A stretch of 64,000 bases of DNA from Planctomycetota bacterium (GTDB taxonomy: Bacteria > Planctomycetota > UBA1135 > GCA-002686595), in the NCBI GenBank assembly GCA_947484275.1, contig CANKOY010000017.1:1-64000 (forward strand), read 5' to 3'. The notes beneath the pieces are model-generated. The model searched no databases. It saw nothing but the letters and a program-made list of their open reading frames with translations, and was not told the origin of the DNA. The position numbers and the translations under genes were made by a program. Shown piece after piece: positions 675-50,469 of the stretch; position 1 is the first letter of the stretch; each line of letters begins with the position of its first letter.

Positions 675-3341
675 TCAGCCGTTCTCACACGTCAGGCCAG
701 CTTCTAGGATGCGATTCTGCAGCGTGTCCGTGTCCCAGCCGAGGTAGAGCGCCGCGCGCGTCTTGTTCCAGGTGCCCTTGCCGGTAGCGGTGCACTTCAG
801 GGCCGAGATCAGCAAGTCCTTGTCGGGATGACGCGACGGCAGACGGGCAAGGGCCTCGTGGCCGAAACGCTCAGCAAGTCCCATAAACATGCCCGCGTCC
901 ACGGCGCGGTCCACGGGGCATAGGACCAACCGATACATCCACTGGGCGAGTTCGCGCACGTTGCCCGGCCACGGCTGGCGCCAAAGAAAAGCCAGAGCAG
1001 AGTCCTCGAGCATCGGTGTACGCAGTCCTGAATGGGCCGCGAAGTGGTGCGCGAACAGGCGCGCCAGGGGCGCGATTTCCGCGCGGCGCTTGGCCAAGGG
1101 TTCGACGCGCAATTCGATGCGTGACAACAACCAGGCCAACTCGGAGGTCAGTGTGGAGTCTTCCGCGGCAGTGGAAATCGAGCGGTCTAGAACAAAATAC
1201 AACCGTCCCGGAGCGTCGCCATTTTCTTCGATGAGCTGAGCCACTCGCGCCTGACGATCCCGAGGCTGATCCAGGAGGCCCTCCACGATCCAGCCGCCGT
1301 CAGCGCCACGCGTTTCCAGGGTGCGCTCGAAATCCGCAGCAGCGCACGAAAGTCGCCGCAGGACACCGGCGCGGCTTGGGCCCTCGAAGTGCAGCCTGCG
1401 CGCCAGAATGCGGCGCCCCGATCCAAAGGGCCCGCTGATCGCGACAGGGCCGCGCGCGCTGGCGAGCGCGACCAGTTGTTCCGGCCCTAACACCGCGACG
1501 GCGGACGCAGGCTCGACGTGCGCATCGTGACCAAAGCGCTGTAGGTGCCAAGTTCGGAATTGCGCAGCGGCGAGCTCTGGTGCGAGCACGTCGGCGCGCG
1601 CACGAAAGCGCTTTAAGTCCGCGACTGAGAAATCACCCCGGCGCGCGGACTCCACCAGCCAGACCCCCAAGACACGGCCGCGCAATCCCACGGGAATCGC
1701 AACGCCGCTCAGTGCTGCGGGATGAAGCGCGAGACTCCGCTCCGCTTCGCTGATCGTCACCGGGAGGCCCGTGGAAATGGCCCGGGAAATGGCGCGGCCT
1801 GCACTAGTCGCGCAGGAGTCAGCCCCAGACGCGAGGTCGGGCGTAGTCGAGAAGTCGCTGGACTCGAGGCCCTCGCCGCCCCGGGCCACTAGCAAGGCGC
1901 CGCCCTCGCGCACGTCGAAGGCCGACCAGCGCCGTTGACTGGTCTTCAGCGACAAGCCTTCGACAAAGTCGCGCAGGACGGCAGCCGCGAAGGAGGCCTC
2001 GTCCGCAAGTTGGGTGGGTATGACGGCAAGGGAGCGACCTGCACGCGGGGCGAGGTGAATCGACCATTCAACTGCAAGTCGCGCCAGGGCGGCGCGCGAG
2101 GGCACGAGGTGGTGCTCGAACTCCAAGCGCAGCCACCCGCGCAGATCACCGTCCACGTCGGACACAGGCACGACGGCCAGGGCGAGTATTGACTGCGGAT
2201 CGATTGCGGTTCGCGCTGGCGCGCACTGCGCCAGTGCGCCGAAGTGCTCGATGCGCGCGCGAGCGTCGCCGAGCATCTGGCACTCGGGTTCGCGCGCATC
2301 CGAGGCGGCTCCATCGCGACCGGTGAGCCACGCACTCAGGCGACCGCCGTGGGCCGGCGCATGGGCGCTGGCCACGATTTGCGCGCGGCCTGGCCCAACC
2401 AATGACCAAGCCGAAAACAGCGCGGCGCCGTGGCTCTTGCGGGCGCCGTCGGCTCGCTGTTCAAGCGCCGCACCGTCAAGCTCAACTCCAGGCGGGCATA
2501 GGGGCTCCCCGGAACTCTCCTGACCTGGAAACCAGATCCCCACAGACGGAAGCCGGGCGCGCAACTCCCCCAGCGAGCGTGGCAGCCGCGCTCGAGCCTG
2601 TGAACTTGAGGCAGGAAAGCCTGCCGAGTTCACGGCTTCACCGGACAGTGCCGCGGTCCAGGTCCACAAGCACTTCAGCCGCGGATCGGCCGGGAGGCGC
2701 GCCGAGGCAGACTCCAGTCGCGCGCGCGCCGCGCGGACCGCACCGCGATCCAAGAGACACTCGACGAGACCAGCAAGTGCAAAATTGGCAAGGGCAGAAT
2801 TGCGTACGTCTCCGCGCGACTTGCCTTGCTGCGAGAGCAGGCGTTCGAAGGCCGCGGCGCCTGCCTGCGCACCTCGCGAGGCACGTTCACAGCGCGCGCG
2901 CCACAGTTCCACGCGCGGCACGCTGGCGCCAACAGACTCGAGTCCCGCCACAAGTCGCTGTGCGACTTGCTCGGCGCGTTCGCCGGGGAGCGGCACGTGG
3001 GCCAGTGGGCACGAATCAGTGCGCTCCTCCTCGAGGTCGCTCCAGGCCTGCTGCAGTTCGCCCGTGCATTCGCCGAAGTGCGCGAAGGAGTCAGCACCCA
3101 CGAGCGCGTAGAGGTGATGACGCAGGAGCTCCTCGTGGACGCGAATCCGACGATCAGCGGCGGAGCGATCCAACTCGTTCCTCGCACGCGGCAAGCTGAC
3201 GTGAACGCTGGCGCTCCCGTGGCTGCGCGCATCGTCGGAGAGCAGCCGCAGGAAGGTCGTCACGCGCTGGGCCCGCTGCCAGAATGCAGGCGCGGCATCA
3301 GGCAGCAACAGCTCCAGCGCATCGGCAGATCGCTCGTTCAT
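675..3341 (-). CDS. Large GAF-domain transcriptional regulator of the sigma-54 enhancer-binding-protein (NtrC/Fis) family, with degenerate AAA+ motifs and a C-terminal Fis-type helix-turn-helix.
   Basis: 888 aa ORF. The C-terminus carries the WPGNVRELAQ signature and a Fis-type HTH (ALYLGWDTDTLQNRILEAGL). The central AAA+ region reads GPFGSGRR where the Walker A GxxGxGK(E/T) is expected. The GAFTGA loop is absent, and ADGGWIVEGLL sits where GGTLFLDEI is expected. GAF-like repeats occupy the N-terminus. Confidence 0.75.
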   Translation of the reverse strand: MNERSADALELLLPDAAPAFWQRAQRVTTFLRLLSDDARSHGSASVHVSLPRARNELDRSAADRRIRVHEELLRHHLYALVGADSFAHFGECTGELQQAWSDLEEERTDSCPLAHVPLPGERAEQVAQRLVAGLESVGASVPRVELWRARCERASRGAQAGAAAFERLLSQQGKSRGDVRNSALANFALAGLVECLLDRGAVRAARARLESASARLPADPRLKCLWTWTAALSGEAVNSAGFPASSSQARARLPRSLGELRARLPSVGIWFPGQESSGEPLCPPGVELDGAALEQRADGARKSHGAALFSAWSLVGPGRAQIVASAHAPAHGGRLSAWLTGRDGAASDAREPECQMLGDARARIEHFGALAQCAPARTAIDPQSILALAVVPVSDVDGDLRGWLRLEFEHHLVPSRAALARLAVEWSIHLAPRAGRSLAVIPTQLADEASFAAAVLRDFVEGLSLKTSQRRWSAFDVREGGALLVARGGEGLESSDFSTTPDLASGADSCATSAGRAISRAISTGLPVTISEAERSLALHPAALSGVAIPVGLRGRVLGVWLVESARRGDFSVADLKRFRARADVLAPELAAAQFRTWHLQRFGHDAHVEPASAVAVLGPEQLVALASARGPVAISGPFGSGRRILARRLHFEGPSRAGVLRRLSCAAADFERTLETRGADGGWIVEGLLDQPRDRQARVAQLIEENGDAPGRLYFVLDRSISTAAEDSTLTSELAWLLSRIELRVEPLAKRRAEIAPLARLFAHHFAAHSGLRTPMLEDSALAFLWRQPWPGNVRELAQWMYRLVLCPVDRAVDAGMFMGLAERFGHEALARLPSRHPDKDLLISALKCTATGKGTWNKTRAALYLGWDTDTLQNRILEAGLTCENG

Positions 3342-15580: not shown

Positions 15581-17002
15581 TCAGCGAGCGTAGCTGTCGA
15601 TCACACGTTCGATCGCGCGCTCGCACACGGCGCAAAAGCGCGTGGGGTTGCGTGTGAACATGATGCAATCGACCTCGGGCCGAAAAAGGCCCTTGGCCTG
15701 GTAGCTCGCCCCTTCAAAGGCTCCGACCGCGTTGGCGTAACGCTCCCGAGCCAGGAGCGGCGCCGTGGAGCCTTTGACTTCGCGGAACAGGCCTTCCATC
15801 GCTTCCTCGCTGGCCTTGGCCTCGAGCATCTGCGCGCGACGGGCCTGGTAGGCCAGGTCGATTTCGTCGAAGTGTTGCTGACCCCAGGGCGTCGGCAGCG
15901 GTGTGTCCTTGGCCACAAGGTCCTTCCACTTCAAGTTCGCGGGATCGAGCAGGGCGGTGACGTTCGGCTCCCAGGGTTCGACGCCGGGCTTGATGAACTC
16001 TTCGTAGGCAACCTGGGAGGAGTAGTACTCATCCGCGAGCCCGGCGAAGGAATGGCCGAACTCGTGGACGAAGACGTACGCAGCGGGCTCGGTGTCGGCG
16101 GCGACGGTGGCCCACAGGTTGTAGATGCCGCCGCCGCCGTACTTGCGCTCGTTGAACAGCAGAATCAGCGTGTCGTAGGGCGCCTGGGCACAGGTCTGTC
16201 GCAGTGCGAAGTCGTCCATGGTCAGGACGTAGCGATCGGATCCAAACGCGTTGTAGGAAAGGCCCAGGGCGCTCTTGCGCGCCACTTCCTTGCGCGGATT
16301 CGCGATGCCCGCTTCCTTCGAGGGCACGAACAGCGCGCGCACGTTGAAGTCGGACTTGCGGCGCTGGAAGGGCTCGGTCGTGAACATGACCTCCACCAGA
16401 CGGCGCGTGTCGGCGACGAATTTGTCGCGCTGCTCCCGCGTGTAGCCGTCTGAGACGATCAAGAGGTCGACGTGGGTTGCATTGTCGCCATGGACGAAGA
16501 TCGGCACGGTCTCACCAAGTTGTTCCGGATCACGTCGCCACGGTCGGTCCACGGCAAGGTCGACGTCCCGCGTGGCTAGATCCTGAAAACTCCCGTCGTC
16601 TGCGCGCTTCTGGATCGCGAGCCGGAATGGCAGACGCGGCTCGGGCAGGCGCACAGTCTCCTCGAACGCCTTGAGGAACTCCTTGGCCTCGGCCGTGGTC
16701 TCCCACTCGCCGAAAATGCTCGCGAAACCGCGCGAGTACAAGAGCCGCTGACTGGCGAGGTCGCGCATTTCCACGCGGTACTTGCCGAAGTCGTTGGGGT
16801 CGATCAATTGCGTGCGCGAGCCGGGCCAGTCGCCGGAGATGACCACATGTTCGAAGCCGATTTCCCCTGACCCGCCCTTGCGGTTGGCGTGGTTGTAGCC
16901 GACCTGCATGCACTTCCCGGTGAAGGCCTGATCGAAGTCGGGCCTCGCCAGGGTAGAGCAACCGCACAACGCGAGAGTCAAGAGCAGCAAGAGCTTGTCC
17001 AT
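15581..17002 (-). CDS. M64-family (IgA-peptidase-like) zinc metallopeptidase lipoprotein.
   Basis: HEFGHSFAGLADEY is an HExxH plus downstream acidic motif. Lipoprotein signal MDKLLLLLTLALCGCS. The start was placed at the Met at 17002, which begins the signal peptide. Confidence 0.8.
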   Translation of the reverse strand: MDKLLLLLTLALCGCSTLARPDFDQAFTGKCMQVGYNHANRKGGSGEIGFEHVVISGDWPGSRTQLIDPNDFGKYRVEMRDLASQRLLYSRGFASIFGEWETTAEAKEFLKAFEETVRLPEPRLPFRLAIQKRADDGSFQDLATRDVDLAVDRPWRRDPEQLGETVPIFVHGDNATHVDLLIVSDGYTREQRDKFVADTRRLVEVMFTTEPFQRRKSDFNVRALFVPSKEAGIANPRKEVARKSALGLSYNAFGSDRYVLTMDDFALRQTCAQAPYDTLILLFNERKYGGGGIYNLWATVAADTEPAAYVFVHEFGHSFAGLADEYYSSQVAYEEFIKPGVEPWEPNVTALLDPANLKWKDLVAKDTPLPTPWGQQHFDEIDLAYQARRAQMLEAKASEEAMEGLFREVKGSTAPLLARERYANAVGAFEGASYQAKGLFRPEVDCIMFTRNPTRFCAVCERAIERVIDSYAR

Positions 17003-17008
17003 GGCCAC

Positions 17009-17064
17009 GACCATAGCGGATGGGTGAAGGAACGGCACAGTTCCTTCACCCATCCGCTATGGTC
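17009..17064. promoter_or_regulatory. Perfect 25 bp inverted repeat with a 5 nt spacer, in the 70 bp divergent intergenic region between the M64 peptidase and epimerase genes. Candidate operator site.
   Basis: gaccatagcggatgggtgaaggaac GGCAC agttccttcacccatccgctatggtc. The two arms are exact reverse complements of each other. The palindrome covers nearly the whole gap between the two start codons. Confidence 0.5.
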
Positions 17065-17072
17065 TGCGCAAC

Positions 17073-18647
17073 ATGCGGGTACTCGTCAGCGGAGCCACGG
17101 GATTTGTCGGCCGCGCCCTTTGCCTGCGCCTTGCGCGCGACGGGCACCAAGTCGTGGCCTGGGTGCGCAGTCCAGAGCGCGCGCGGCACTTGCTCGGGGC
17201 GGATGTCGAACTTGTCGCTATCGATGCTGGCGCTGGCGCCCGCAACGACGATTCCGGCGGGGAACTCGCACGGGAACTCTCGACCTGCGACGCGATCGTG
17301 CACCTCGCGGGCGAACCGGTGATCGGCAAGCGCTGGAGCGCGACGCAACGGGAGCGATTGCACTTGAGTCGCGTCGGCCTGGCGAATCGCCTCGTAGCAG
17401 CCATGTCCAAGTCCTCGCGCGCTCCGCACACCTTCGTCAGTTCGAGCGCCGTGGGTTATTACGGCGAGCGCGGCGACGATCGCTTGGGCGAGAATTCTCC
17501 CGCGGGGGACGATTTCCTCGCGCGCCTGTGCGTCGACTGGGAACAGGCGGCCCAAGCTGCCGCAAAGCACGGCGCGCGCGTCGTCTGCATGCGCACCGGA
17601 ATCGTCCTGGGCCCCGAGGGCGGCGTGCTCGGCGCGATGCGCTTGCCGTTTCAATTGGGCCTCGGCGGCCCCCTGGGTTCCGGCCGCCAGTACGTGCCCT
17701 GGGTTCACCTCGACGATCTGTTGGAGATGTACGCCCTCGCCCTGACGGATCCGACCATCGAAGGCCCGTGGAACGCGACCGCTCCAGAACCGGTGACCAA
17801 TGCGGAGTTCACTCGCGCCCTGGGCCGCGTTCTCCGACGCCCCGCCATTTTTACCGTGCCGAAGTTCGCGCTGTACGCAGCCCTGGGCGCGTCGGCTTCT
17901 GCGCCCCTCGGCAGTCAGCGCGCGATTCCAGAGCGCTTCCTCGGCCGCGGCTTCGCTTTCGTTCATCGCCAGATCGAGTCGGCGTTGCGCGAGATTCTGC
18001 GCGGCGATCACGGACTGCGCCTCGGCCCCGCGCGCGAAGTTCCAGATCACGCCTACTTGCGCGCTCGACGACCGACTCACGTCTTGGAGCAGACCACCGA
18101 AATTCGCGCGCCCCTGGCGCAGGTGGCGCAGTTTTTTTCCAAGGCGGAAAACCTCGGGATCCTGACGCCGCCGTCGATGGTCTTCCGCGTCGAGACGCCG
18201 CGACCGATCGCCATGGCCAAGGGCACGCGCATCGACTACACGCTGCGCCTTGGACCGTTTCCCTTGCGCTGGCGCACATCGATCGAAGTCTGGGACGACA
18301 GCGCAGGTTTCAGCGACGCGGAGGAACGCGGGCCGTTCCATTGTTGGTGGCACGAACATCGCTTCGAGGCCCAGGGGGAGGGCACGCTGATGCGCGACCG
18401 CGTGTTCTTCGCGGTGCTCCCCCGCTGGATCGGTTGGCTCGGATGGATGGAACGCGCGATCGTCGCGCTGACCGTGGGGCGCAGACTGCGGCGCATCTTC
18501 GGCTATCGCTCGCAGGCCATGGCCTGGAGGTTCGACGCCCGCGTTCCTAGCAGCCCGTTGAAAAAATCCCGTCGCGAGGCGCAGCGATCTTCGTCGTGGC
18601 TAGGAACGCGACGGAGGGACGGCGGAGGCGGCCTTCCTGGCCGCTGA
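17073..18647 (+). CDS. TIGR01777/YfcH-type NAD-dependent epimerase (DUF1731) fused to a C-terminal SRPBCC (START/Bet v1-like) domain. The last approximately 32 codons are read from a repeat element.
   Basis: MRVLVSGATGFVGRALCLRL is a Rossmann motif. The YfcH-like core follows, then a 150 aa SRPBCC-like region. The ORF continues into the palindromic element that begins at 18551. Confidence 0.8.
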   Translation: MRVLVSGATGFVGRALCLRLARDGHQVVAWVRSPERARHLLGADVELVAIDAGAGARNDDSGGELARELSTCDAIVHLAGEPVIGKRWSATQRERLHLSRVGLANRLVAAMSKSSRAPHTFVSSSAVGYYGERGDDRLGENSPAGDDFLARLCVDWEQAAQAAAKHGARVVCMRTGIVLGPEGGVLGAMRLPFQLGLGGPLGSGRQYVPWVHLDDLLEMYALALTDPTIEGPWNATAPEPVTNAEFTRALGRVLRRPAIFTVPKFALYAALGASASAPLGSQRAIPERFLGRGFAFVHRQIESALREILRGDHGLRLGPAREVPDHAYLRARRPTHVLEQTTEIRAPLAQVAQFFSKAENLGILTPPSMVFRVETPRPIAMAKGTRIDYTLRLGPFPLRWRTSIEVWDDSAGFSDAEERGPFHCWWHEHRFEAQGEGTLMRDRVFFAVLPRWIGWLGWMERAIVALTVGRRLRRIFGYRSQAMAWRFDARVPSSPLKKSRREAQRSSSWLGTRRRDGGGGLPGR

Positions 18648-18722
18648 GCACGGCCCGACGAGCGTGACGACGCCACGGCGAAGATCGCGAAGCCGCAGCA
18701 GGGCTCTTTTTCAATGGGCTGC
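18551..18722. repeat. Copy A of an approximately 175 bp palindromic intergenic element (MITE/REP-like).
   Basis: About 90% identical to 39839..40022 in the same orientation. The terminal arms are inverted repeats (cagcccgttgaaaaa...tttttcaatgggctg). The internal IR is gcggccttcctggccgc. Confidence 0.7.
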
Positions 18723-18728
18723 TAGGAT
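18720..18728 (+). promoter_or_regulatory. Extended -10-like element TGcTAGGAT, 11 nt upstream of the UDG start codon (near-leaderless).
   Basis: TG-n-TAGGAT matches the extended -10 TGnTATAAT at 5 of 6 hexamer positions. The same motif recurs upstream of two other start codons in this window. Confidence 0.35.
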
Positions 18729-31839: not shown

Positions 31840-33903
31840 TCAGGGCGCGATTTGCGCTTCGAGCGCGTTGGTCAACGTCGCGTTGTTCGGCGCGGCGAAT
31901 CCCTGGTCGCGGCCCCAGAACTGGGTGCGCACTGTGTTGCCAACCACCTGCAAGCCCGGATCGCCCGTGCCGCCGGTGATGAAGGCGTTCAAGTCGAGCG
32001 TGTACACCCCGCTGCAGTCATTGCCCGTGGGATTGCCGCCCGAATTGAGCGCCGACGAGCGGCGAACAGGGCTGGCCACGCACAGCGTGCCTCCGGAGAA
32101 CGGCGCCGCGGCGCGACCGGTCAGGCTGTACATCAAGAGCCCCGGCTTGTTGTTGCGCACGTTCGTGCCGCGGACCGTGAAGCCGCTGCCCGCGCTGACG
32201 GACGGATTGCTGCCGATGAAACCGATCGACGGCGTGCAGCCCAGTGAGTTCACCTTCGGCGTGCAGTACACAACCGGCGGCGTGGTGCAGATCGACGCAG
32301 TGGATGTGTGGAACGCGGTGGGTGCGTCCTCGGGGCTCGACCAGACGATTCCGTTGCTGGCCGTGGTGCCGGTCACGTAGTACTGGAAGGTCGTGTTGCA
32401 GGCCACCGCCGGAAAATTCGCGTCGTAGAGTCCCCCGCCGAGCGCCACCAGGGGCACGCTGATCCAGTTGCCGGTCGTGCGATACCAAAGGCGCTCGGTG
32501 CCAGCGGTCAAAAGGCCCGCCTGGGACTGGTTGATCTGCACGCGCAGGCTGTGTCCCAGGTTGGAAACGGCCGCGGGTTGACCGTTGGGGAACGAAAAGG
32601 TGAGTTGGTGCGCGCCGACCCACCACACGAACAGGCCGCTCTCCAAGTCGGAGCCGGTGACCACGCCACCGGGGTGGAACGGATAGACGTTCCAAAGCCC
32701 GTTGTAGGTCGGGTTGTCGTCCGTGGTGCGCGTGTCGAACCAGGCGATTTCGGGAGGATTGTTCGGATTCTGCGCCAGGTCGTAGACGCGCACTCCGCTG
32801 GTGTACGCGGCCTGGAACAGCTTTGTCCCCAGGGTGTACTCGTTGTGCGGAATGGCCGAATTGCCATTGTTGAAGGAGCCGAGGAACACGGGCGCCGATG
32901 TGCCCAGACCCGAGATGTCAAAGACGTGGTTGATCGTCGGACCGCCGAGGTTGGGCACGTAGAGTTCGTCGTTGAGGTACAGGCGCGACTTGTCGGCGGA
33001 CAGCGTGCACTGATGGCCGTACTGACCGTTCGGCCAGGTGATGCGCGGCGTCACCGCTGTGATGTTGGCCTTGTTGGTTACATCGAGGATATCGACGCCG
33101 GTGTTCGCCCAACCGCCGTTATCGCCGCCGCAGGCGAAGGCGATCTCTTTGCCCGCGAGCGGACCGCTGGTGTAGTTCACCAGGGTGACTTCGTGTGTGT
33201 ACCGAGAGGACCAGGACGCCACGTACAACGGCGCCGCGGGGTTGGGATTCAGGTTGTAGATCCGCAGACCGTTCGAACCTCCGCCGGAGCGATAGAGGTA
33301 TCCGGTTTGAGTGTTGATCTCCATCGAGTGTGTCGCCGCAGGCGACGGGCCCGAGGTAATCGTGTTCACCAGGGTGACGACGCCACTGTCGATGTTCGCC
33401 AGATCGATCACCTGGATGCCGCCGCCGCCCTCGCTCACTGCGTAGGCGTAGTGCGAGAACACGCGCACGTCGCGCCACAGACTGTCTGGTCCCGCGATGT
33501 AGCCGACGTTCACGGTTTGCCCCGGCGCCGTGATCTCAGCGAACCCGGTGCCGCCGTAGAGCCCCATCAATGCGTAGCGCCGACCCGAGGCGGAAACGTA
33601 GCCCCAGCCGGAATTGCCGTTCTGCTGGTTCGCGCCCCAGGTGTTCAGGGGCAGCCACGACAGGAGCTTGACGTTGAATGAACTGAACGGCGACGAACTG
33701 TAGGAACCGGAACTGCCGGGGCCGGCGGGCACGAATCCAGGCAAAGGCGCGCCCAGCGGGCCCAGGGGGCTGTGGTACCCGGGCCCCGTGTAGGGCGCGC
33801 GGCGATCAAGCACCTTTCCGTCGCCATCGTGGGCGCCAACTAGGGCGCCGAGGGTCATGGCAGCTGCCAAGGCGAGGAACAGGTTGCGGGGTGAACCGAT
33901 CAT
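31840..33903 (-). CDS. Secreted LVIVD-repeat beta-propeller protein carrying a approximately 150 aa Cys-rich C-terminal domain of unrecognised type.
   Basis: Signal peptide ([24 protein letters not shown]). LVIVD-like repeats ([39 protein letters not shown]). The C-terminal 150 aa are approximately 65% identical to the C-terminus of the 46741..48726 protein. Confidence 0.75.
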
Positions 33904-34276
33904 GGAAGGGCTCCTGCGGTGCGAATCGGGTAGGGGCAATCGCGAGTATGTCGCCCCTGGATCCTACACCCTGGGACGGTTCGTCAATGATTCGTGAAGA
34001 CTCTGTCAGCCGGGCCATTCGGTGCAGGAGCGCAAATCCCAGTCAGGCAGGGCTCCGCCTGTTGGATGTCGAGCCCCTCGCGGACTCGATCCCCTGGGAC
34101 GCTGGTCTCGGTCGGGTGCCGGAGGAAAGAGGGCCCGCAGCTCCACTAGGGAGTACTCGCTGCGTCTGGACGAAAGGACGGCCCTGGGTTCATGAAGCCC
34201 TTCGGCGCCTGTGGAATCGATCCCGCCCGCAGGCCCGGGTGGATTTGCTGCGGAGCCCCCGGTAGCGTGCGGCCCA

Positions 34277-34988: not shown

Positions 34989-37076
34989 CTAGAAACTGCT
35001 GGTCACCTCGAGTTCGCGGGCCTCCGCCAGCAAGCGCGCCGCTTCTCGCACGGCGTCCTGGGTGCCCGACAGGGCGATAACGTCGCCGCTGCGCAGGACC
35101 TCCTCGTCCTCGGGCTGCACCAGAACCACCCCTTCGCGGTCGATGGCCACGACGCAGGCCCCTGTGCGGGCCTGAAGGTCGAGGGCATCGAGACTGCGTC
35201 CCACGGCCAACGACTGTGAGGAGAGCCCGAGCATGGAGAGGTGTCCGATCCCGGGCAGCATTTGTTCCAGGTCCTCGATGCTCGGCGTCGGGATTGTCGC
35301 CCCCGTGCGCGTCAGAGCAGCGGCGATGATCTGGGCGCCCGCCTGCACGTGCCCTTCGAGTTCGTTGGCGCGTCGCCAGAAGGAAAACGCCAGGGCCCCG
35401 AGCACCAGGGACAACACGATCAGTCCACCCAGCGGCGGCACGAATGGTTGGGTGATCGCCTGGACCATCAACCCCGCCACGAGCACGATGCCGCACTCCA
35501 GTGCAATGGCCAGTGCGCGCCGGGGCGTGTAGGCCGGATCCACTCGGGTCGCTTCGGGCAGGGGCAGCGCGGACTCCGCGATCAGGCCGCCGATACGCGC
35601 GCCCATCCGCAACAATCCCAGGCCGAATGGCAGGGAAGCCAGTGTTGCGCAGCCGACGATCAGACCGCGCACGAGATCGGGACGATCGCCGATCTGCCGC
35701 GAGAGCAGTCCGCCCAATTCCTCGTGCCAGATGGCAGCGTTCGCGATGACTCCGGCGAGCAGCAGCACGTCGGCCGCAAGCCAGGCGAACATGCGCCACA
35801 GGCGGCGCCGCGGCAGTGGATTCTGTTTGCCCGCGCGCCAACCCTCGAGCCACGTGGCGTACAGCGAAACAAAGGTCCGCATGCGCTCTGGCAAATTGCG
35901 CTCGAAGGCCTCGGCGATCCACGGAGAGGCCCGCACGAGCCAGGGGTTGAGCATGGCCGCCAGCACAGCGACCGCCACGGCGACTGGGTAGAGGAACTCG
36001 CCGACTGCACCGCTTTGCACGCCGACGGCAGCGATGATGAATGAGAATTCGCCGATCTGAGCCAGGGTCAGACCCGCGCGCACGGATTCGTGAATGCCAT
36101 GTCCCGTGAGGAAGGCCCCGAGAAACACAGCGCCGGCCCGGCCCACGAGAACGACGGCTAGCAAGGCAAACACGGCGCCGAGGTTCTCAACCACCAGCGC
36201 GGGATCGAGCAGCATTCCGACCGAGACGAAAAACACCGCAGCGAACAGATCGCGAAGCGGAGTGATCAGAGTGCCGATCCGGCCCCCGGCGCCGGACTCT
36301 GCTACGAGCATGCCCGCCAAGAACGCGCCCAGGGCCACGGAATATCCGGCCGCGTGGGCGAGCCAGGAGAATGCAAAGCACAGACCGACGGAGGCAACCA
36401 CGTTGACTTCCGGGCTGGCCACGCGCGCCACGGCGCGCACCATGGGCGGCACGACGTACATCCCCACGGCCACCAGTGCCGCGAGGAAACCCGATAGGCG
36501 CGCCACGGTCCAGCTCAGTTCGCTGGCGGACACGTCGCTGCCGGAGGCCACCGCAGTCAGCACCGCCAGTAGCAGCACGACGACGAGGTCCTCGATGACC
36601 ATCACGCCAAACACGAGTTCGCGGAATTCTGGCCTGGACTTCGAGTCGCGCAGGGCTCGCTCCACCAGCATCGAGCTGGAGATCACCAAGGTCGCGGCCG
36701 CGAAAATGGATTCCAGCGGCGTCCAGCCAAAGGCCTGCCCCACCAGAAATCCCGCCGCGAACAAAAGCGGCACTGAGACGGCGACCATGGCCCCCGCAGT
36801 GGGCAAGAGGCGCGTGAACCGTCTCAGGGTGAAACCCAGGCCGATGGAGAACATCAGCAGCGTGACGCCAAGCTCCGAGAGCACGCGCACGTTTTCCACG
36901 TTCGCGTTGAAAATCAGGGTCACATGGGGCCCCACCAGTACTCCAGCCAGCAGGTAGCCCAGGACCAGGGGCTGACGCAGTCGGTGACAGAGGACGGCGG
37001 TCAAGGCCGCGGTGCAACACACCAGCGCCAAGTCCTCCATGGGGTTGTGGGTGCCCATTCCCGCGCACGATAGCAC
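34989..37076 (-). CDS. Cation:proton antiporter, CPA2 family (KefB/YbaL-like), with a C-terminal TrkA-C (RCK_C) domain.
   Basis: About 12 TM helices with the Na_H_Exchanger signature. The C-terminal ...VVAIDREGVVLVQPEDEEVLRSGDVIALSGTQDAV... is an RCK_C-like domain. Confidence 0.85.
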   Translation of the reverse strand: MLSCAGMGTHNPMEDLALVCCTAALTAVLCHRLRQPLVLGYLLAGVLVGPHVTLIFNANVENVRVLSELGVTLLMFSIGLGFTLRRFTRLLPTAGAMVAVSVPLLFAAGFLVGQAFGWTPLESIFAAATLVISSSMLVERALRDSKSRPEFRELVFGVMVIEDLVVVLLLAVLTAVASGSDVSASELSWTVARLSGFLAALVAVGMYVVPPMVRAVARVASPEVNVVASVGLCFAFSWLAHAAGYSVALGAFLAGMLVAESGAGGRIGTLITPLRDLFAAVFFVSVGMLLDPALVVENLGAVFALLAVVLVGRAGAVFLGAFLTGHGIHESVRAGLTLAQIGEFSFIIAAVGVQSGAVGEFLYPVAVAVAVLAAMLNPWLVRASPWIAEAFERNLPERMRTFVSLYATWLEGWRAGKQNPLPRRRLWRMFAWLAADVLLLAGVIANAAIWHEELGGLLSRQIGDRPDLVRGLIVGCATLASLPFGLGLLRMGARIGGLIAESALPLPEATRVDPAYTPRRALAIALECGIVLVAGLMVQAITQPFVPPLGGLIVLSLVLGALAFSFWRRANELEGHVQAGAQIIAAALTRTGATIPTPSIEDLEQMLPGIGHLSMLGLSSQSLAVGRSLDALDLQARTGACVVAIDREGVVLVQPEDEEVLRSGDVIALSGTQDAVREAARLLAEARELEVTSSF

Positions 37077-43259: not shown

Positions 43260-44378
43260 TTATTGCTCTCCCCGCCGCGCGGCGAGCGCCCGCCTCCAGC
43301 CTTGCACGACTGGATCGTAGCGCTCGGGCCACCAGCGTCCGGAGATCGCTCCCGCCTCCGCTGACAGCCCCGTACTGGGCTGATCCGGGGAGCCGGGCGC
43401 GCCGGGCGCCGCAACCGTCGATCGATTCGAGCCGACCATTGTGCGGTCCGGCGGCCCGTTGGCCAGCGCAGACTTTGTCGCGTCCATTCCCGCGGAGTCC
43501 TCGGGCCCGCCGCCGAGGCCCGGGGAGGCGCCCGAAGCGCGAACAGGCGCTGGCGAGGCTCCCTTTTCAGCGCTGGCCAATTCCGTGACCGGCAGCGCGC
43601 GTTCGCGGTCGATTTCCTGCTGCAGCCGGTCGATCGCTTCGCGCGCGGCGGACCTAGAAGCGGCGCGCTCGCGCTCGCGGCCCAGCTCGACCCCGGCAAG
43701 ATCGAGATCCGCGAGCCGTCGCGCGCGGGCCTGGGGATCCACCGCAGCCGCCGCGCGCTGCTCGCGGGCCCTGGAGAGCGCGGCCCGTGCCGAGGATTGA
43801 GGGGGTGTCCGCCGGTCGCCGCCGGCCGCGGCAAGTTCGCTTTCCTGCCCCAGATGCGCGCTGCTCACGCGCCCGGGCGCCTCCAGGGCCAAGGCTGCGA
43901 GCGACAAACCTACGGCAGGTGGCGCGAGCCAGATCCAGCCCGGGGCGGGCTGAGCCCGTGCAAGGCTCACTTTGGTGAGCGCCGACAATTCGCGCTGCTC
44001 CAGTGAGCGTGCCAGGGCCCCCACTTCACCGCGACACAGCGCCTCGTACACGCTTGCCAGGGCTCCACCGCGCCCCAAGCGCCCGTCGATTTGCTGCGCC
44101 AACTCGAGATCAGTTCGCTTTGCGCGCTCGACCCACCACGTGGCGGCGGCCGCTGCGCCAGACAACGCGGCGCATGCGACCAACCCGGCGAGTCGGTCCC
44201 TTATCGAAGTGTGAGCATCGAACGAGAGGATCGCGGCCGCGGCGCCGAGAGCCCCGGCGCACAGCCCGAGGGCAGCGGACTCAAGGGCCGTGAAAGCTCT
44301 GCGCCGGCGGCGAACTTCGGCAACGAATTCGACGATCGAATTCGGTGCATCGCGGCGGTCGTGCCCCGTTGGCATCAA
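43260..44378 (-). CDS. Hypothetical membrane protein with an Ala/Arg/Glu-rich coiled-coil-like region.
   Basis: Two to three N-terminal hydrophobic helices followed by low-complexity A/R/E-rich sequence. Overlaps the upstream gene by 4 nt. No known domain. Confidence 0.4.
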   Translation of the reverse strand: MMPTGHDRRDAPNSIVEFVAEVRRRRRAFTALESAALGLCAGALGAAAAILSFDAHTSIRDRLAGLVACAALSGAAAAATWWVERAKRTDLELAQQIDGRLGRGGALASVYEALCRGEVGALARSLEQRELSALTKVSLARAQPAPGWIWLAPPAVGLSLAALALEAPGRVSSAHLGQESELAAAGGDRRTPPQSSARAALSRAREQRAAAAVDPQARARRLADLDLAGVELGRERERAASRSAAREAIDRLQQEIDRERALPVTELASAEKGASPAPVRASGASPGLGGGPEDSAGMDATKSALANGPPDRTMVGSNRSTVAAPGAPGSPDQPSTGLSAEAGAISGRWWPERYDPVVQGWRRALAARRGEQ

Positions 44379-45298
44379 CGACCGTCCTTGGGCGGCGGCG
44401 GGCCTTCGTCCCCGGGCGCGAGGACGCGGCGCGCGTCGCGGGCAGCCGGCTCAATTTTGGGCAGGCCGGCGGCCAGGGCAGCGGGAATTTCCGTGAGCCT
44501 CCCGCGCGAGAAAAATAGCGCCACCTGCTCGCCGCGCTGGGGAATCAGCCACGCGTTCGGCAGCCAGATGGTCTGCTCGACGCATTCGGGCAGGGCCGAC
44601 GTGATCAGGGTGTACGCCTCGTTGAAGTAGGCGACGTTGATCAGATTCTGGTACACGTCCGCGGCGAATTGCTCCCGCGGATCCTTGTCTTTCTTGCGCG
44701 GATCCGGCGGCAGCATCTTCGATCCCAGATACACCCAGCGATGGCGCTGCATGCTCGCACCCGTGAGCAAGTTCCGCAGCAAGTCCTCGACGCGATAAAA
44801 GAACAGCTCCTCGCCCTGGCGCCAGGCGAGGTTGAGTTCGAATCCGTCGCCCTCGGGCACGGTCACTTCATAGGGCGTGACGCCTGCGCGCATTTCCGCT
44901 TCGCTGGGCCGCGGCTCGCGCGCCTGCCACTTCGCATTGCGCCCCGGAGCGACGCCGAGGGCGAGCAGAGCGGTGTTGAGCACACTGGGCCGAATGTGCG
45001 TGCTGAACATGCTCTCGTGGGTCGCGCCCGCGGAGCCCACGAGCAGGTACTCCAGCAATTCGTCGCGCACCTCGATGCGCACCGGAATCCACATCGCATT
45101 TGATTTCGGATCGAGATGCACGTCCTGGGCGCGCATGGCTTCCACCAGGGCTGCGAGGGCAGGATCCTCAGGCCCAACCTGGGCCGGCGACTGCGGGGTC
45201 GCGGTGTGGGAGCGCCAGGCCAGAGCCGTGGCCGCAAGCAACGCGATCAGCGCAAACGCGCTCGCGAACTTCGTTAGGCGGGATGAGGTTTGCGACAT
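44375..45298 (-). CDS. Hypothetical secreted protein. Start taken at the Met that begins the signal peptide.
   Basis: MSQTSSRLTKFASAFALIALLAATALA is a signal peptide. No recognisable domain. It is the first gene of a four-gene minus-strand unit ending in MIPS and the M3 peptidase. Confidence 0.4.
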   Translation of the reverse strand: MSQTSSRLTKFASAFALIALLAATALAWRSHTATPQSPAQVGPEDPALAALVEAMRAQDVHLDPKSNAMWIPVRIEVRDELLEYLLVGSAGATHESMFSTHIRPSVLNTALLALGVAPGRNAKWQAREPRPSEAEMRAGVTPYEVTVPEGDGFELNLAWRQGEELFFYRVEDLLRNLLTGASMQRHRWVYLGSKMLPPDPRKKDKDPREQFAADVYQNLINVAYFNEAYTLITSALPECVEQTIWLPNAWLIPQRGEQVALFFSRGRLTEIPAALAAGLPKIEPAARDARRVLAPGDEGPPPPKDGR

Positions 45299-45431
45299 GA
45301 CAGGAGTGTAGTGCGGCGTGGAGGGCGTCCAAAGTCGGCGATCTGCCGCAGCCGCAAACGCCCCGTGTCCAGGGCGGTTCATTCGCGGCGGATTCCGGGC
45401 GTGTGCACAGGGGAAGCAGCGCGGCTCGCGC

Positions 45432-45446: not shown

Positions 45447-46661
45447 GTGACGGGCCCGCGGACTCTTTTCTTACGCATCCTCTTGGTGCTCGCACTGGTC
45501 GCGGCGGTGGATGTGATCCTGAGCCTTACCTGGCTCTCGGAGGGCCGGGTCGGCAAGCGCCCGCTGCCGCCATTTGGCATCGAGTTCGACGAGCCGCAGT
45601 TGGCGGTGCTCGCCCGTCTGGAGGCGGGCCTAGTCAATCAGAACAGCGTAGTCGGCTTCGATCGCGATTTGGGCTGGTGCGTGCGCCCCCTTGCTGCACA
45701 CCCCACCCAGCCGATTCGAATCAATTCGCGCGGGCTGCGCGGCGAACGCGAGTACTCGGAACTTCCGCCGCCGGACAAGTTGCGCGTGGCCTGCTACGGC
45801 GATTCCTTCGCCTTCGGAGACGAAGTGGGCGACGAAGCTACCTACGAGTCGTTTCTCGAGCGCATCCAGCCCTCGGTCGAAGCCTTGAACTTCGGGGTGT
45901 CGGCCTACGGCACGGACCAGGCGCTGCTGCGCATGGAGCGCGATGGGATCCTCGGCGCGCGCGCGGTGATCGTGTCACTGCTGTTGGAGAACATCGGGCG
46001 CAATGTGAATCGCTACCGGCCGCTGTGGACCGCGCGCACGCTGTCGCCCTTGGCCAAGCCGCGCTTCGTGCTCGTGAACGATCAGCTGCAGTTGATTCCA
46101 CAGCCCTTCGCGGATGGTCGCGAGTTTGCGCAAGCCGCGCGCTCGGGCGCCGCGCTCGAAATTCTCGCCGAGCACGAGTACTGGCGCGGACGCCCTGAGT
46201 TGTGGACCGGTCGCGCGTCGTCGCTGGGAAGATTGGCCGCGGGTTGGTTCGCTTACCGCGAGCGCGACCCACAGCGTTTGTGGCTTGATCGCGACGGCGA
46301 GCCCTTTCGCGTGACCGTCGCGTTGATCGAAGCGCTCCGCGAACGGGCGCGCGCCCTGGGCGCGAAGGAGTTCCTCGTATTGCTGTTTCCGATGCGCGAG
46401 GAACTGGCGGACTATCGCGAGAGCGGCAAGGCCTACTGGAGCGCCGTGGCCGACGAATTCACTTCGCGCGGAATCGACTGCATCGATTTGGCGCCTGCCC
46501 TGGCGGCCGAAGACCTGCGCTGCGAACAGGATCCGCTGCACCCGACGCTGTTCGTCGCCGCGCACCTGTCGAGCGTCGGCAACCAGACCGTGGCCGTGGA
46601 AATCCAGCGCTGGCTGCTGGACCGCCGCCTGCTGGCCCACGAGGACGTCGAGCGTCGATAA
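45447..46661 (+). CDS. SGNH/GDSL-family hydrolase or acyltransferase with an N-terminal membrane anchor (AlgJ/AlgX/DltD-like superfamily).
   Basis: GTG start. N-terminal TM (LFLRILLVLALVAAVDVIL). ACYGDSFAFGDEV is a GDS(L) block-I motif. Later blocks are present but degenerate. Confidence 0.65.
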   Translation: MTGPRTLFLRILLVLALVAAVDVILSLTWLSEGRVGKRPLPPFGIEFDEPQLAVLARLEAGLVNQNSVVGFDRDLGWCVRPLAAHPTQPIRINSRGLRGEREYSELPPPDKLRVACYGDSFAFGDEVGDEATYESFLERIQPSVEALNFGVSAYGTDQALLRMERDGILGARAVIVSLLLENIGRNVNRYRPLWTARTLSPLAKPRFVLVNDQLQLIPQPFADGREFAQAARSGAALEILAEHEYWRGRPELWTGRASSLGRLAAGWFAYRERDPQRLWLDRDGEPFRVTVALIEALRERARALGAKEFLVLLFPMREELADYRESGKAYWSAVADEFTSRGIDCIDLAPALAAEDLRCEQDPLHPTLFVAAHLSSVGNQTVAVEIQRWLLDRRLLAHEDVERR

Positions 46662-46740
46662 TGGCTGCGGCCCGCGCAGGAGCACTCCTGCGCGGGCCGC
46701 GTGAATCCCGAGGATGCGAGTCAACAGACTCGCTGGAGAA

Positions 46741-48726
46741 TCAAGGGCCAACGATGAACTCGAGCCCGTTGGAAAGCGTCGAGTTGTTCGGGGACGCGAA
46801 GCCGTTGTCGCGACCCCAGAACTGGCAATCCACCAGCGTGCCCAAAACCGTCAGGAACGCCTGCGGGCTGCCACCGAGACCGCCAACGGCGAACGTGTTC
46901 ATGTCGATCGCGTAGGTGCCCGAGCAATCGTTCGGCGGAGGATTGCCACCCGAGTTCAGCGCGGTGGAGCGACGGACCGGCGTGCCGACGCAGCGCAGAC
47001 CGCCTTGGAACGGAACTGCCGCTTGACCACCATTGGTGTAAAGCAAGAGGCCCGGCTTGTTGTTGATCACGTTCGTCGCGGTGACGCTGAAGCCCACACC
47101 GGCCGTCGCGCTCGAAACGCCCGAGGATCCGATCGAGGGCGTGCAGCCCAGCGAGTTCACTTTCGCCGTGCAGTAGACGACCGGGCAGGTGCCCGAGAGC
47201 GTGTAACCGAACGCGGACGATGCGGTCCAATCCGAAAGCCAGGTCCTGCAGGAAGCGCCAGGCTCGAAGCCTCCGCGGTAGGACGCTGGGGTGAAGAATC
47301 CGTCGTTGGGGGCCGAGGCAACGCTGACCATGGCGGCGTTCGCCGGACGCGGGTTGAGCCCGATGACCGGAACCATCGTCTTGCCCCCCTTGACCACGGC
47401 CGGGCCGCGGGTGACCGACACCACGGGCGCGTCAGCGTCCAGGATGCCCGGGATCAGCACGTTGTTGTTGCCCGCACCGAACACTCCAACGGTGGTCGCC
47501 TGGGTGTAGGCCGAGGCGAACGGATTGCGGAAGAAGACGCTGTCGGTGACCTCGGCCAATTTGCCCGAGGTTTGCACCTGGTAGAACGCTGCCGGATTCG
47601 CCGGATCATTGGCATGGGCCGGGACTGCATTGAAGTCGGTCGTCCAGGTGTTCGCCCAGCTCAAGGTCCCATTGAATCCGTAGCCGTTGGCGCCATCGCC
47701 ATCTACGTTGTCGAACTTGACCAGCTCCTCGCCGAGGTCCATGAAGATGCAGTTGCGGTACTGAGCACGAGCGTTGTCGCGCCAGGCCGTTCCATGGTCA
47801 CCGGCAACCGGCTGGCCGATCACCGTGAAGTTGTAGATCGTCGTCGTGGTCACGGGCTGCCAGTTGGAGTCCTCGGCGCCGTCCACCTCGAAGCAGTTGT
47901 CGCCGACGCCCGAGCCCTGGGCCGCGTTCAGGCTGTGGCCTTGAACGATCAGGCCAAACTGCGCCTTCCCGCGCCAACCCTGGTCGACGTCGAAGGAGTC
48001 GTCACCGATGTTCCAGATGCTGATGTACTTCAGGCCGACGGTCCCGCCCCAAATCTCGATGCCGTCGTCGACGTTGTTCATGATCTCAACGTGATGGATG
48101 TCCGTGCCACGGCCGATGCCGCCGAGGGACAGACCGTTCAACTCGTTGTTCAGCCCGACGACCTTGCCGCCGTAGCGCAGCGACAGATAGCTGATCGTGC
48201 CGCTGTCATCGTCGTCGTTGCCCCCGCCGTAGCGATCCGTCGAGGGCCCGTTCACGAGGCCTTCCATGTCGGCGACGTTGCTGGCGCTCGGGACAGGTGT
48301 GTTCGTACCAATGGCGTTTTCGGAAATGAAAGCCGCGCCCATGATCGTGAGATTGCCCCACTCGTTGGCGGACTCGCGCCACGTTCCGGTCTGGGGGTTG
48401 CCGCTGATCCAGGTGGCCTGGTCGGCCGTGGAAGTCATGATCACGGGCTGGGTGCGCGTGCCGTTGACGAAGATCTGCGCGCCCTTGCACACCGCGAGGC
48501 TGCCGCCAAGGTTGGTCTGGCTTGCGATGACGGTGCCCGGCTCGATCGTCAGTGTTGCGCCGGGCAGCACGTAGATCTGCTGCTGCAGCTTGTAGGTGTT
48601 GTTCGCTGTCCAGGTCGTTGAAACAGCGATGTTTGCGGTCACGAGGATGTCGGCGGCCTGGGCGGTCGAAGCAAGGCCGGCGCAAAGCAGGGCGGGAACG
48701 GCGGTTCCCTTCAAGAGGCGTCTCAC
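46741..48726 (-). CDS. Secreted right-handed parallel beta-helix protein carrying the same approximately 150 aa Cys-rich C-terminal domain as the LVIVD protein.
   Basis: GTG start at 48726 with an AGGAGA RBS 7 nt upstream. Signal peptide [22 protein letters not shown]-terminal [30 protein letters not shown] is typical of beta-helix glycosidase/lyase-like proteins. The C-terminal 150 aa are approximately 65% identical to those of the 31840..33903 protein. Confidence 0.75.
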
Positions 48727-49059
48727 GGTTGGCTCTCCTTGGAGTCGGATGGGGATCTCCGCGCAGGCCAGGGAGACTCCCCGGCGAAATGCTGCACGTG
48801 CGGGGGATGCTAGAAGCGCTTTGTGCATGGCCCGTGAAGCGACAGTGAAAGTCCGCCGGGAAAAACGACCGCGCCAGAGCACAGGATCAGGGCCCAGCAT
48901 CCAGCGCGAACCCCTGCGGACCGCTGGACCTTGAGAGCGTGATCGCGCCGCCAGCGCACCTTTCCGCCTGCCGGACCCGAGAGAAACGACACCGGATGAC
49001 GCGCAGGAGGCTGCGCGCTGTGAACTCCTCTCGAAAAGGAGTTGTGTTCGAAGGCTGGG

Positions 49060-50469
49060 TTAGCGCTGAGACTTGGAAAGGCGCTCGACCTGCTCGAGGT
49101 AGCGCGCAATGTCCTCGCGCGGCTTGAGTTCCTGCGTGCGTCGCAACGGCGCAAGTGCGTCGCTGTACCTGCCCATCCCCACGAGTACCTGCGCTTGACT
49201 GATCAGGGCCTGGGGCGCGTAGGCATCCAGGCTCGCGGCGCGCTCGTAGTAGAAAATCGCGCGGTCCGGTTGGCTGGTCCGCGAGTAGTGCTTGGCCAAG
49301 AGCATCAATGCCTCGCCATCCAGTGGATCGACCTTGACGATCTCCTCGAGCACGCTCGCAGTTTCCTCGTTCTCGCTACCGTCGGCCATGGCAAGTCGCG
49401 CGTCGAGTTTCAGCAACTTCTGGCGCTCGATCGGCTCGATTCGTCCCGCCCAGGAGCTGTTGATGCGCCCCAGAACTTCGCGCGCCAGTTGCGGCGTCCC
49501 GCGCGAGGCGAGAATTTCCGCGGCTCGCATGGGGCGGGAGATGGGTTGATTCACATCGACATCGATCGCGCGCAGGTAAGCCCGGGCGGCGAGGTCCAGC
49601 AGGTTTTCCCCGACGTAAATGTCGGCGAGCGTGTGCGCGCTGTCGACGCTCGCAAGCCCCAGGCGATCGATGGCCTCAAGGTTGACGGCAGCCTTCAGCG
49701 GTTGCTTCAGCCCAAGATAGGCGTGTGCCTGCAACAGCCAGAATTCTGCTTTGTCCGGATAGCGCGCAATCAGGACCTCCAATAGCGAGGCGCAATCCTC
49801 GAACTTGCCCTGCCGAAACACACAGCGCGTGAGCCCCAGACGCCACTCGGTGTTTTCGGGCTGCAGCAACAGCGCATTGCGGTACGCCGCCTCCGCGGGC
49901 TGATAGTCCTGCTTGGACGAATACGCGAATCCGAGGAGCCCATAGGAATAGGCGTCTCCGCCACCAAGCTCGAGCATGCGCACGAACGCGGCAATCGCCG
50001 GATCGTATTTGCCCTGACGCACCTGGATCAGCCCCAAGTTGCGCCAGGCACGGCGAAAGCTCGGGAACTTCTTGATCGCCTTGTCGTAGCTCTCGAGCGC
50101 CGAATCGAAGTTTTCCTGCTGGAAATGAATGCCGGCGAGGGTGAAATCAAGGATCGCCGAGCAATCCGGCTTCATGGCCTTCTTCAGCGCCGCCTCGGCC
50201 TTGGCCAAGTCGTTCGCCGCCATCAATGGACGCACCTTCTCGAGAATCCCAACCTCATCAAGGGTGACGCGCGGCTCGATCTCGGCGTTGACTCCGTAGG
50301 CCGCGACGAACTGACGCTGGAACGTGGGATCGTTCCAGATCGATTCGATAGTTCCTCGGGCGCTCTCCTGGGCGGCCGCGCCAGCTGCCAGGATCAAGCC
50401 CGCCACGCAGGTCCCCAGGATTGTGAAGCTGCGCCGTGCTCGGCGCCCATTGCTCAAGGTTTTCATGTT
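49060..50469 (-). CDS. TPR-repeat periplasmic protein of the TonB system cluster (TtpD-like).
   Basis: Signal peptide (MKTLSNGRRARRSFTILGTCVAGLILAAGAAAQ). Multiple TPR-like repeats. It is the last gene of the minus-strand TonB cluster. Confidence 0.7.
   Translation of the reverse strand, partial: NMKTLSNGRRARRSFTILGTCVAGLILAAGAAAQESARGTIESIWNDPTFQRQFVAAYGVNAEIEPRVTLDEVGILEKVRPLMAANDLAKAEAALKKAMKPDCSAILDFTLAGIHFQQENFDSALESYDKAIKKFPSFRRAWRNLGLIQVRQGKYDPAIAAFVRMLELGGGDAYSYGLLGFAYSSKQDYQPAEAAYRNALLLQPENTEWRLGLTRCVFRQGKFEDCASLLEVLIARYPDKAEFWLLQAHAYLGLKQPLKAAVNLEAIDRLGLASVDSAHTLADIYVGENLLDLAARAYLRAIDVDVNQPISRPMRAAEILASRGTPQLAREVLGRINSSWAGRIEPIERQKLLKLDARLAMADGSENEETASVLEEIVKVDPLDGEALMLLAKHYSRTSQPDRAIFYYERAASLDAYAPQALISQAQVLVGMGRYSDALAPLRRTQELKPREDIARYLEQVERLSKSQR

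Follow-up and report, generated by a model that had tools for sequence, protein, structure and literature searches.

A perfect 25 bp inverted repeat between divergent M64 peptidase and epimerase genes of a planctomycete: a probable mirror-image promoter or control region common to both

In the stretch of planctomycete DNA analyzed here (64,000 nucleotides, hereafter the window), a perfect inverted repeat takes up 56 of the 70 bp that separate the start codons of two divergent genes, one encoding an M64 peptidase and the other an epimerase. This palindrome is probably a shared mirror-image promoter or control region of both genes, and the most economical account of it is a young, single-copy, mirror-symmetric promoter region derived from an inverted duplication. 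Our best reading, which we put forward tentatively, is that a core promoter working symmetrically in both directions arose by inverted duplication or template switching, and that its centre may be bound by a dimeric regulator. If this is true, a single DNA-copying event rewired two genes onto one compact symmetric control region, and the locus would provide a concrete candidate for a Planctomycetota core promoter with leaderless starts; transcription-start mapping for Planctomycetota was not found in the literature searched. If the palindrome is instead a neutral by-product, it is an ordinary curiosity. In both cases the finding concerns one locus of an uncultured organism and is of limited wider importance.

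RESULTS

A perfect palindrome nearly fills the spacer between two divergent genes

A repeat search of the window located the left arm of the palindrome at 17009–17033 (GACCATAGCGGATGGGTGAAGGAAC, the same in all six assemblies described below) and the right arm at 17040–17064 (GTTCCTTCACCCATCCGCTATGGTC, polymorphic at 17048), each 25 nt long and complementary at 25 of 25 positions. The initial annotation, which had described a perfect 25 + 25 nt palindrome occupying almost all of the divergent spacer (17003–17072), was borne out in both respects, while the loop that it gave as the 5 nt GGCAC is actually the asymmetric 6 nt sequence GGCACA (17034–17039), the second arm having been written with 26 nt. 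As this loop is not self-complementary, the element has an orientation, with its dyad axis between 17036 and 17037. In the folds, four extra pairs per side, with one bulged C each, extended the structure to a quasi-palindrome at 17004–17069 that covers 66 of the 70 intergenic bases. Inside a single arm, self-complementarity was limited to CCAT-N5-ATGG. The DNA fold of the palindrome reached −33 kcal/mol (z −12.4) and the RNA fold −61.7 kcal/mol over 96 nt (z −9.5), indicating a very stable structure on either strand.

The palindrome is the longest perfect inverted repeat of the 64 kb window, in which one other has arms of at least 12 nt; in about 55 kb of DNA from relatives, perfect inverted repeats with arms of at least 12 nt numbered zero. 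Shuffled versions of the window yielded zero arm matches at up to 3 mismatches, and by our own estimate (0.273^25 × 64,000 positions × 21 loop sizes) about 1e-8 such repeats are expected per window, in agreement with the earlier view that the dyad is too long to have arisen by chance.

The gene on the minus strand (15581–17002) encodes an M64 (IgA-peptidase-like) lipoprotein, as recognized by the Pfam families Peptidase_M64 (1.9e-108) and M64_N, with the likely start MDKLLLLLTLALCGC. Its orthologues begin at the MDKLLLL position, which places the start at 17002; a public gene caller used 17014. The gene on the plus strand (17073–18647; start MRVLVSGATGFVG) was assigned from Pfam, orthologue alignment and homologue names as a TIGR01777-type epimerase/DUF1731/SRPBCC gene. 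In the alignment, it shares the N-terminus MR(V/I)L(V/I)(T/S)GATGFVG with every orthologue, which fixes its start at 17073. The two start codons lie 34.5 bp (M64) and 36.5 bp (epimerase) from the dyad axis. The mirror-image N-terminal peptides that had been ascribed to the two genes are an artefact of ORFs over-extended to the furthest start and are not the N-termini of the genes. The peptide MGEGTAQ... belongs to another plus-strand ORF, which begins at 17020, has 100 codons and is out of frame with the epimerase (17073 − 17020 = 53). Between strains, both genes were intact and their variation was mostly synonymous, indicating that they are expressed genes in need of promoters.

The palindrome is absent from the orthologous spacers at hand

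The divergent M64–epimerase pair is kept in relatives whose epimerase or M64 is 57–71% identical to that of the window, with spacers of 144–189 bp that are unrelated in sequence to the window spacer and hold no palindrome comparable to it. When the orthologous intergenic regions were compared, as had been suggested earlier, the palindrome was found in none of the 8 distinct spacers of relatives (L069–L074, L096, L097, L103 and L104), none of which aligns with that of the window. The closest syntenic contig, L098, whose FabI is 94% identical, breaks off within M64 and thus stops about 0.9 kb before reaching the spacer. These unrelated, longer spacers argue that the palindrome is young and lineage-specific.

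Two observations were made on the relatives' side of this locus. In L104 (M64 71% identical), within the 68 bp of upstream DNA available, there is a perfect 14-bp palindrome, GCGCGAATTCGCGC (positions ~49–62), which ends 6 nt before the M64 start and is unrelated in sequence to the window palindrome. In L072 (Logan SRR14271339 contig 372; FabI 91% identical), a CarH/LitR-type gene with MerR HTH and B12-binding domains (2036–2842) sits between M64 and epimerase, divergent from the epimerase–UDG unit, which hints that light might regulate the gene pair in some members of the clade. No CarH/LitR-type gene is present at the M64–epimerase locus of the window organism.

Recovery in six assemblies and a natural polymorphism in the right arm

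The palindrome was present in six assemblies from the same population, namely the window, two MEGAHIT contigs of the ENA metagenome assemblies ERZ27280196 and ERZ27280197, and three Logan contigs (SRR18907910, -11 and -14), the last obtained from other runs with a different assembler. The window and the MEGAHIT contigs differ by 2 SNPs in 7.6 kb, and the Logan contigs are about 0.4% divergent (20 SNPs in 5,016 bp). The assignment of the sequence to Planctomycetota is borne out by named homologues of its FabI and M64. Position 17048 is A in the window and the ENA contigs and C in all three Logan contigs. The change A17048C creates a T17025·C17048 mismatch and reduces the palindrome to 24/25, with no compensating change in the left arm. 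Perfect complementarity is not obligatory, as the A17048C strains have 24 of 25 pairs. At 0.4% divergence, the one SNP observed in 56 bp compares with about 0.2 expected, a difference that is uninformative and gives no sign of special constraint or of hypermutation. With its A and C alleles, position 17048 offers a natural test of the importance of arm complementarity.

Putative outward promoters in the mirrored arms

We propose that the palindrome is shared control DNA of the two divergent genes and would function in its double-stranded form rather than at the RNA level. About 25 bp of promoter-proximal sequence may recently have been copied across a short spacer, by an inverted duplication or a template switch, and this event would have replaced a longer, unrelated spacer of the kind still present in relatives. 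Both genes would now lie behind the same sequence, each with an outward TATGGT that could serve as its −10 box, and both mRNAs would be leaderless or nearly so, in which case transcription would leave the hairpin out. At the dyad centre, GGAAC-GGCACA-GTTCC, the upstream (−35) regions of the two genes would overlap, thereby coupling both promoters, and a dimeric DNA-binding protein could control both genes by binding at this single centre.

The −10-like hexamer TATGGT (TAnnnT), a putative promoter element, lies on the plus strand at 17058–17063, 9 nt upstream of the epimerase ATG at 17073, and its mirror copy lies on the minus strand at 17010–17015, 7 nt upstream of the M64 ATG at 17002. TATGGT is the sole TAnnnT hexamer of the spacer on each strand, although the outer-end sequence of any element that fills the spacer falls near both ATGs automatically. 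Only 14 bp of the spacer are left without the palindrome, so the promoters must be inside the palindrome unless the opposite coding sequence holds them. When 37 window ORFs were scanned over their first 50 codons, TAnnnT was found 5–10 nt before ATG in five in-frame cases versus zero out-of-frame ones, a partly circular statistic in that two of the five cases are the palindrome itself and the other gene starts are our own calls.

A consensus promoter scan of the spacer returned no full sigma-70-type −35/−10 pair, by rules that may differ in planctomycetes, and nothing resembling TTGACA was present in the palindrome centre. Two other promoter types considered by eye at the centre were rejected: a sigma-54 promoter (cGGCAC...TTCA) lacks the −12 GC, and an ECF promoter (GGAAC-N16/17-?) lacks the ECF −10.

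The closest relative has TAGCCT-9 nt-ATG before its epimerase, and in other relatives TAnnnT lies 45–55 nt upstream of the epimerase or is missing, indicating that leaderless epimerase expression is not conserved. Few window genes carry a Shine-Dalgarno (SD) motif and most are without one. In planctomycetes, SD genes are reported to be few, initiation to be leaderless and/or RPS1-dependent, and structure around the starts to be weak (PMC5397173). Elsewhere in the window, several of the ORF starts of 18739, 34989–37076 (−) and 44375–45382 (−) have TAnnnT 6–10 nt before an in-frame ATG, which suggests that this planctomycete may often use mRNAs with no leader or almost none.

A DNA-copying origin accounts best for the perfection of the arms, better than selection on 25 individual base pairs. 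The perfect identity over 25 bp, the absence of the palindrome from the relatives and the one uncompensated SNP in a 0.4%-divergent strain all fit a young product of DNA copying. That template switching preferentially corrects imperfect to perfect inverted repeats is a supported model (PMC5941160). Dating or polarizing the proposed duplication would take closer relatives than those compared here.

Alternative explanations of the palindrome

The initial annotation had offered the palindrome as a candidate operator. That interpretation was neither supported nor refuted by our results; the position fits control of both genes. In its strict form, a dimeric or tetrameric repressor encoded elsewhere would bind the dyad with high affinity and shut off both genes, which we consider unlikely. 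The dyad symmetry covers both putative core promoters, the palindrome is single-copy as expected of a specific operator, and in L072 the CarH/LitR-type regulator gene adjoins this same gene pair. However, no gene for a DNA-binding regulator turned up when the main ORFs of the 64 kb were scanned with Pfam, and searches of the window and public collections gave neither another full site nor another half-site from which a regulon could be defined. Furthermore, the palindrome is not conserved in the orthologous spacers, and the natural allele A17048C breaks one arm without compensation. HTH dimers contact 2–3-fold fewer base pairs per half-site than 25; as the 25 matched base pairs exceed these protein contacts, selection for binding alone cannot explain the perfection of the arms. 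A dedicated regulator may bind the palindrome, as a candidate only.

The only regulator-like gene that these Pfam scans detected in the window, 14 kb from the palindrome (675–3341, −), encodes a protein of 888 residues with GAF, sigma-54-interaction-type AAA+ and AAA lid domains, in which no HTH was detected; it is conserved in the syntenic relative L099. The operators of CarH/LitR regulators are tandem 11-bp direct repeats of nnnnTnnACAn, usually 3–4 in number (PMC9304148), and a CarH operator was rejected here, as TnnACA occurs on neither strand of 17003–17072. The dyad centre motif was also followed through the window, where GGAAC-N4-8-GTTCC was observed 5 times and 0.37 occurrences were expected. 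Apart from the one in the palindrome, the sites (four) fall within coding regions and differ in spacing. Perfect 7-6-7 repeats, TGGAACG-N6-CGTTCCA, were seen at 32675–32694 and 50318–50337 in unrelated minus-strand coding regions, and both encode W-N-x-x-x-F-Q in frame. We took the enrichment of GGAAC/GTTCC as a codon or peptide effect and not as a regulon, and the two perfect 7-6-7 repeats are probably not DNA sites.

In a broader form, the palindrome would be a purpose-built device, either a long operator for a planctomycete regulator or a supercoiling-sensitive cruciform that couples both promoters, an idea about which we have considerable doubt. By analogy with the CarH-like gene in L072, and considering the downstream UDG gene, the operator version could possibly respond to light or oxidative stress.

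Alternatively, the spacer might have been invaded or replaced by a palindromic repeat of a selfish or dispersed kind, either similar to REP/REPIN or a minimal MITE, its role being at most that of outward promoters, as with Correia elements in Neisseria. Long near-perfect hairpins are typical of such elements (PMC3116915), and a genuine MITE-like family exists in the same genome (18545–18727 and 39834–40012; 87% identical). The palindrome is missing from relatives, its GC content (57%) is below that of the genome (65%), and a family of fewer than about 100 copies could easily show one member per 64 kb. In addition, 9 nt of the arm, ATAGCGGAT, are identical to the first part of a multi-copy repeat of N. 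gonorrhoeae, which we take to be the Correia repeat; this identity is probably a coincidence.

The copy number speaks against such a family. A search for further copies of the half-site had been proposed earlier, many copies being the outcome that would point to a REP-type repeat, and no second copy appeared in the window or in public collections. Within the window, no second arm copy was found at up to 3 mismatches and no second site for the 13-mer core at up to 2 mismatches, nor did blastn-short reveal a degenerate copy in the window and the relatives. An exact 18-mer of the arm was matched 14 times among 185,579 genomes, each representing a species, and 21 times in the JGI metagenomes, and a 16-mer had 52 matches in IMG/VR viral contigs. 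These genome, metagenome and viral matches were isolated and taxonomically scattered, their count was near our own chance estimate, and none of the 18-mer or 16-mer matches extended beyond the seed or was accompanied by the second arm. The plasmid collection gave zero arm matches and the phage collection chance matches only. In Logan assemblies, each 31-mer is unique by construction (PMC12424806), and the Logan k=31 contigs pass unbroken through the palindrome with more than 1.5 kb on either side. By contrast, the MITE-like repeat 1.5 kb from the palindrome stops two of the three contigs after 52 nt. As far as testable, the palindrome is single-copy; diverged copies elsewhere in the genome are possible.

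Apart from copy number, the flanks (GGCCAC | ... | TGCGCA) contain no direct repeat, that is, no target-site duplication, neither a RAYT nor any other transposase was seen in the window when its main ORFs were scanned with Pfam, and removal of the element would leave a 14-bp spacer. The REP/MITE reading is weakened by the single-copy results, and we regard it as decidedly unlikely.

An RNA hairpin in both 5ʹ UTRs, also raised in the initial annotation, is disfavoured. Transcripts would then start inside the opposite gene and carry the 25-bp stem-loop, with a proposed role as 5ʹ stabilizer, processing site or translational brake. The extreme stability of the RNA fold is in line with this idea, and the symmetry would give both mRNAs the same structure. 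However, the stem ends 6 and 8 nt before the start codons, within the ribosome footprint, where a stem of about −60 kcal/mol would hinder initiation, and the few SD sequences also count against it, as non-SD genes need weak structure or leaderless starts (PMC5397173). The A17048C allele yields U·C and A·G mismatches and not wobble pairs, and the palindrome is without homologues and hence without covariation support. Searches against Rfam 15 matched no family beyond generic hairpin noise, the palindrome giving only sub-threshold matches to miRNA-precursor models and the whole window zero hits at gathering level. Taken together, we find a 5ʹ UTR hairpin, in any of the proposed roles, highly improbable.

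A supercoil-driven cruciform switch, in which extrusion would destroy both promoters and thereby feed back on both genes, is a theoretical reading and in our judgment an extremely improbable one. According to the twin-domain model, negative supercoiling builds up between divergently transcribed genes, which is where the palindrome lies, and its DNA hairpin is stable, as given above, but the centre is GC-rich (GGAACGGCACAGTTCC), and a GC-rich centre disfavours cruciform extrusion. Finally, although the source is a short-read metagenome assembly, a fold-back chimera is excluded for practical purposes, as two assemblers and at least five datasets gave the same structure with strain-level SNPs around the palindrome, and both flanking genes are intact and syntenic with relatives.

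Other features of the window

The MITE-like element mentioned above is about 183 bp long, occurs in two copies and ends in 56-nt imperfect terminal inverted repeats that are 77% complementary (TCCTAGCAGCCC...GGGCTGCTAGGA). The copy at 18545–18727 overlaps the 3ʹ end of the epimerase gene, giving it a tail of about 32 residues that is missing in all orthologues, and a TAGGAT box located 10 nt ahead of the start codon of UDG comes from the end of this copy. The other perfect inverted repeat of the window with arms of at least 12 nt, a hairpin with 16-nt arms (GCGGCCCGCGCAGGAG) and a 2-nt loop, lies at 46667–46700 between the convergent genes 45447–46661 (+) and 46741–48900 (−), and looks like a bidirectional terminator. 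The ORFs 31840–33939 (−) and 46741–48900 (−) are paralogous, encode about 700 residues each without a Pfam match, and contain DNA segments that are 82–89% identical.

DISCUSSION

Several known kinds of symmetric DNA were compared with the palindrome. An intrinsic bidirectional terminator, for which a GC-rich hairpin and T-run would be expected at a gene's 3ʹ end or between convergent genes, was rejected, since the terminator scan was negative and the flanking genes are divergent, with both 5ʹ ends facing the hairpin; a tRNA scan found nothing. An attC site, a protelomerase site and parS were rejected on motif position and the non-palindromic centre. The core sites of tyrosine recombinases have the form 13-8-13 in loxP and 11-6-11 in dif. 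The palindrome resembles them in having perfect inverted arms around an asymmetric spacer of 6–8 bp, but its arms are twice as long, it has no partner site, and the window is free of recombinase and mobile-element genes as far as the Pfam scans show.

The ends of Correia elements can supply outward promoters. With MITEs such as these, and with REP sequences and REPINs (PMC3116915), the palindrome shares the character of an intergenic inverted repeat that forms a hairpin. REP/REPIN and MITE families, however, have tens to hundreds of copies per genome, their spacer is longer, and they come with a partner transposase (RAYT) or target-site duplications. We saw no such feature here. A REPIN consists of two inverted REP units, about 71 bp from start to start in P. 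fluorescens GI (PMC3116915), and unlike these spaced, imperfectly palindromic units, the arms here abut a 6-nt loop. Moreover, the relatives have unrelated spacers of 144–189 bp and not the 14-bp empty site that a MITE insertion would leave.

In E. coli, bioO is a 40-bp imperfect palindrome between the divergent bioA and bioBFCD, where it is bound by BirA. The present locus is similar in having a long dyad between divergent units, which at bioO overlaps both promoters and lets one protein control both. Unlike bioO, which is imperfect, shorter, conserved and served by a known repressor, the palindrome here has a 25-6-25 geometry, is perfect and is absent from relatives.

In symmetric bidirectional promoters, the two starts lie about 18 bp apart, whereas here the −10-like boxes are 42 bp apart and the putative starts about 70 bp apart. 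The common feature would be divergent transcription from the symmetry of promoter DNA, which for the present locus is proposed. Such promoters of bacteria have core elements that coincide on opposite strands (bioRxiv 10.1101/2020.01.31.928960; PMC12825309).

With regard to the origin of the mirrored promoter region, documented cases of template switching mostly have arms below about 15 bp, and an arm of 25 bp is at the long end of the range. Like quasipalindrome correction by template switching (PMC5941160, PMC7202029), such an origin would give perfect arms without selection on each base, which fits the perfection, the youth and the 24/25 allele of the palindrome.
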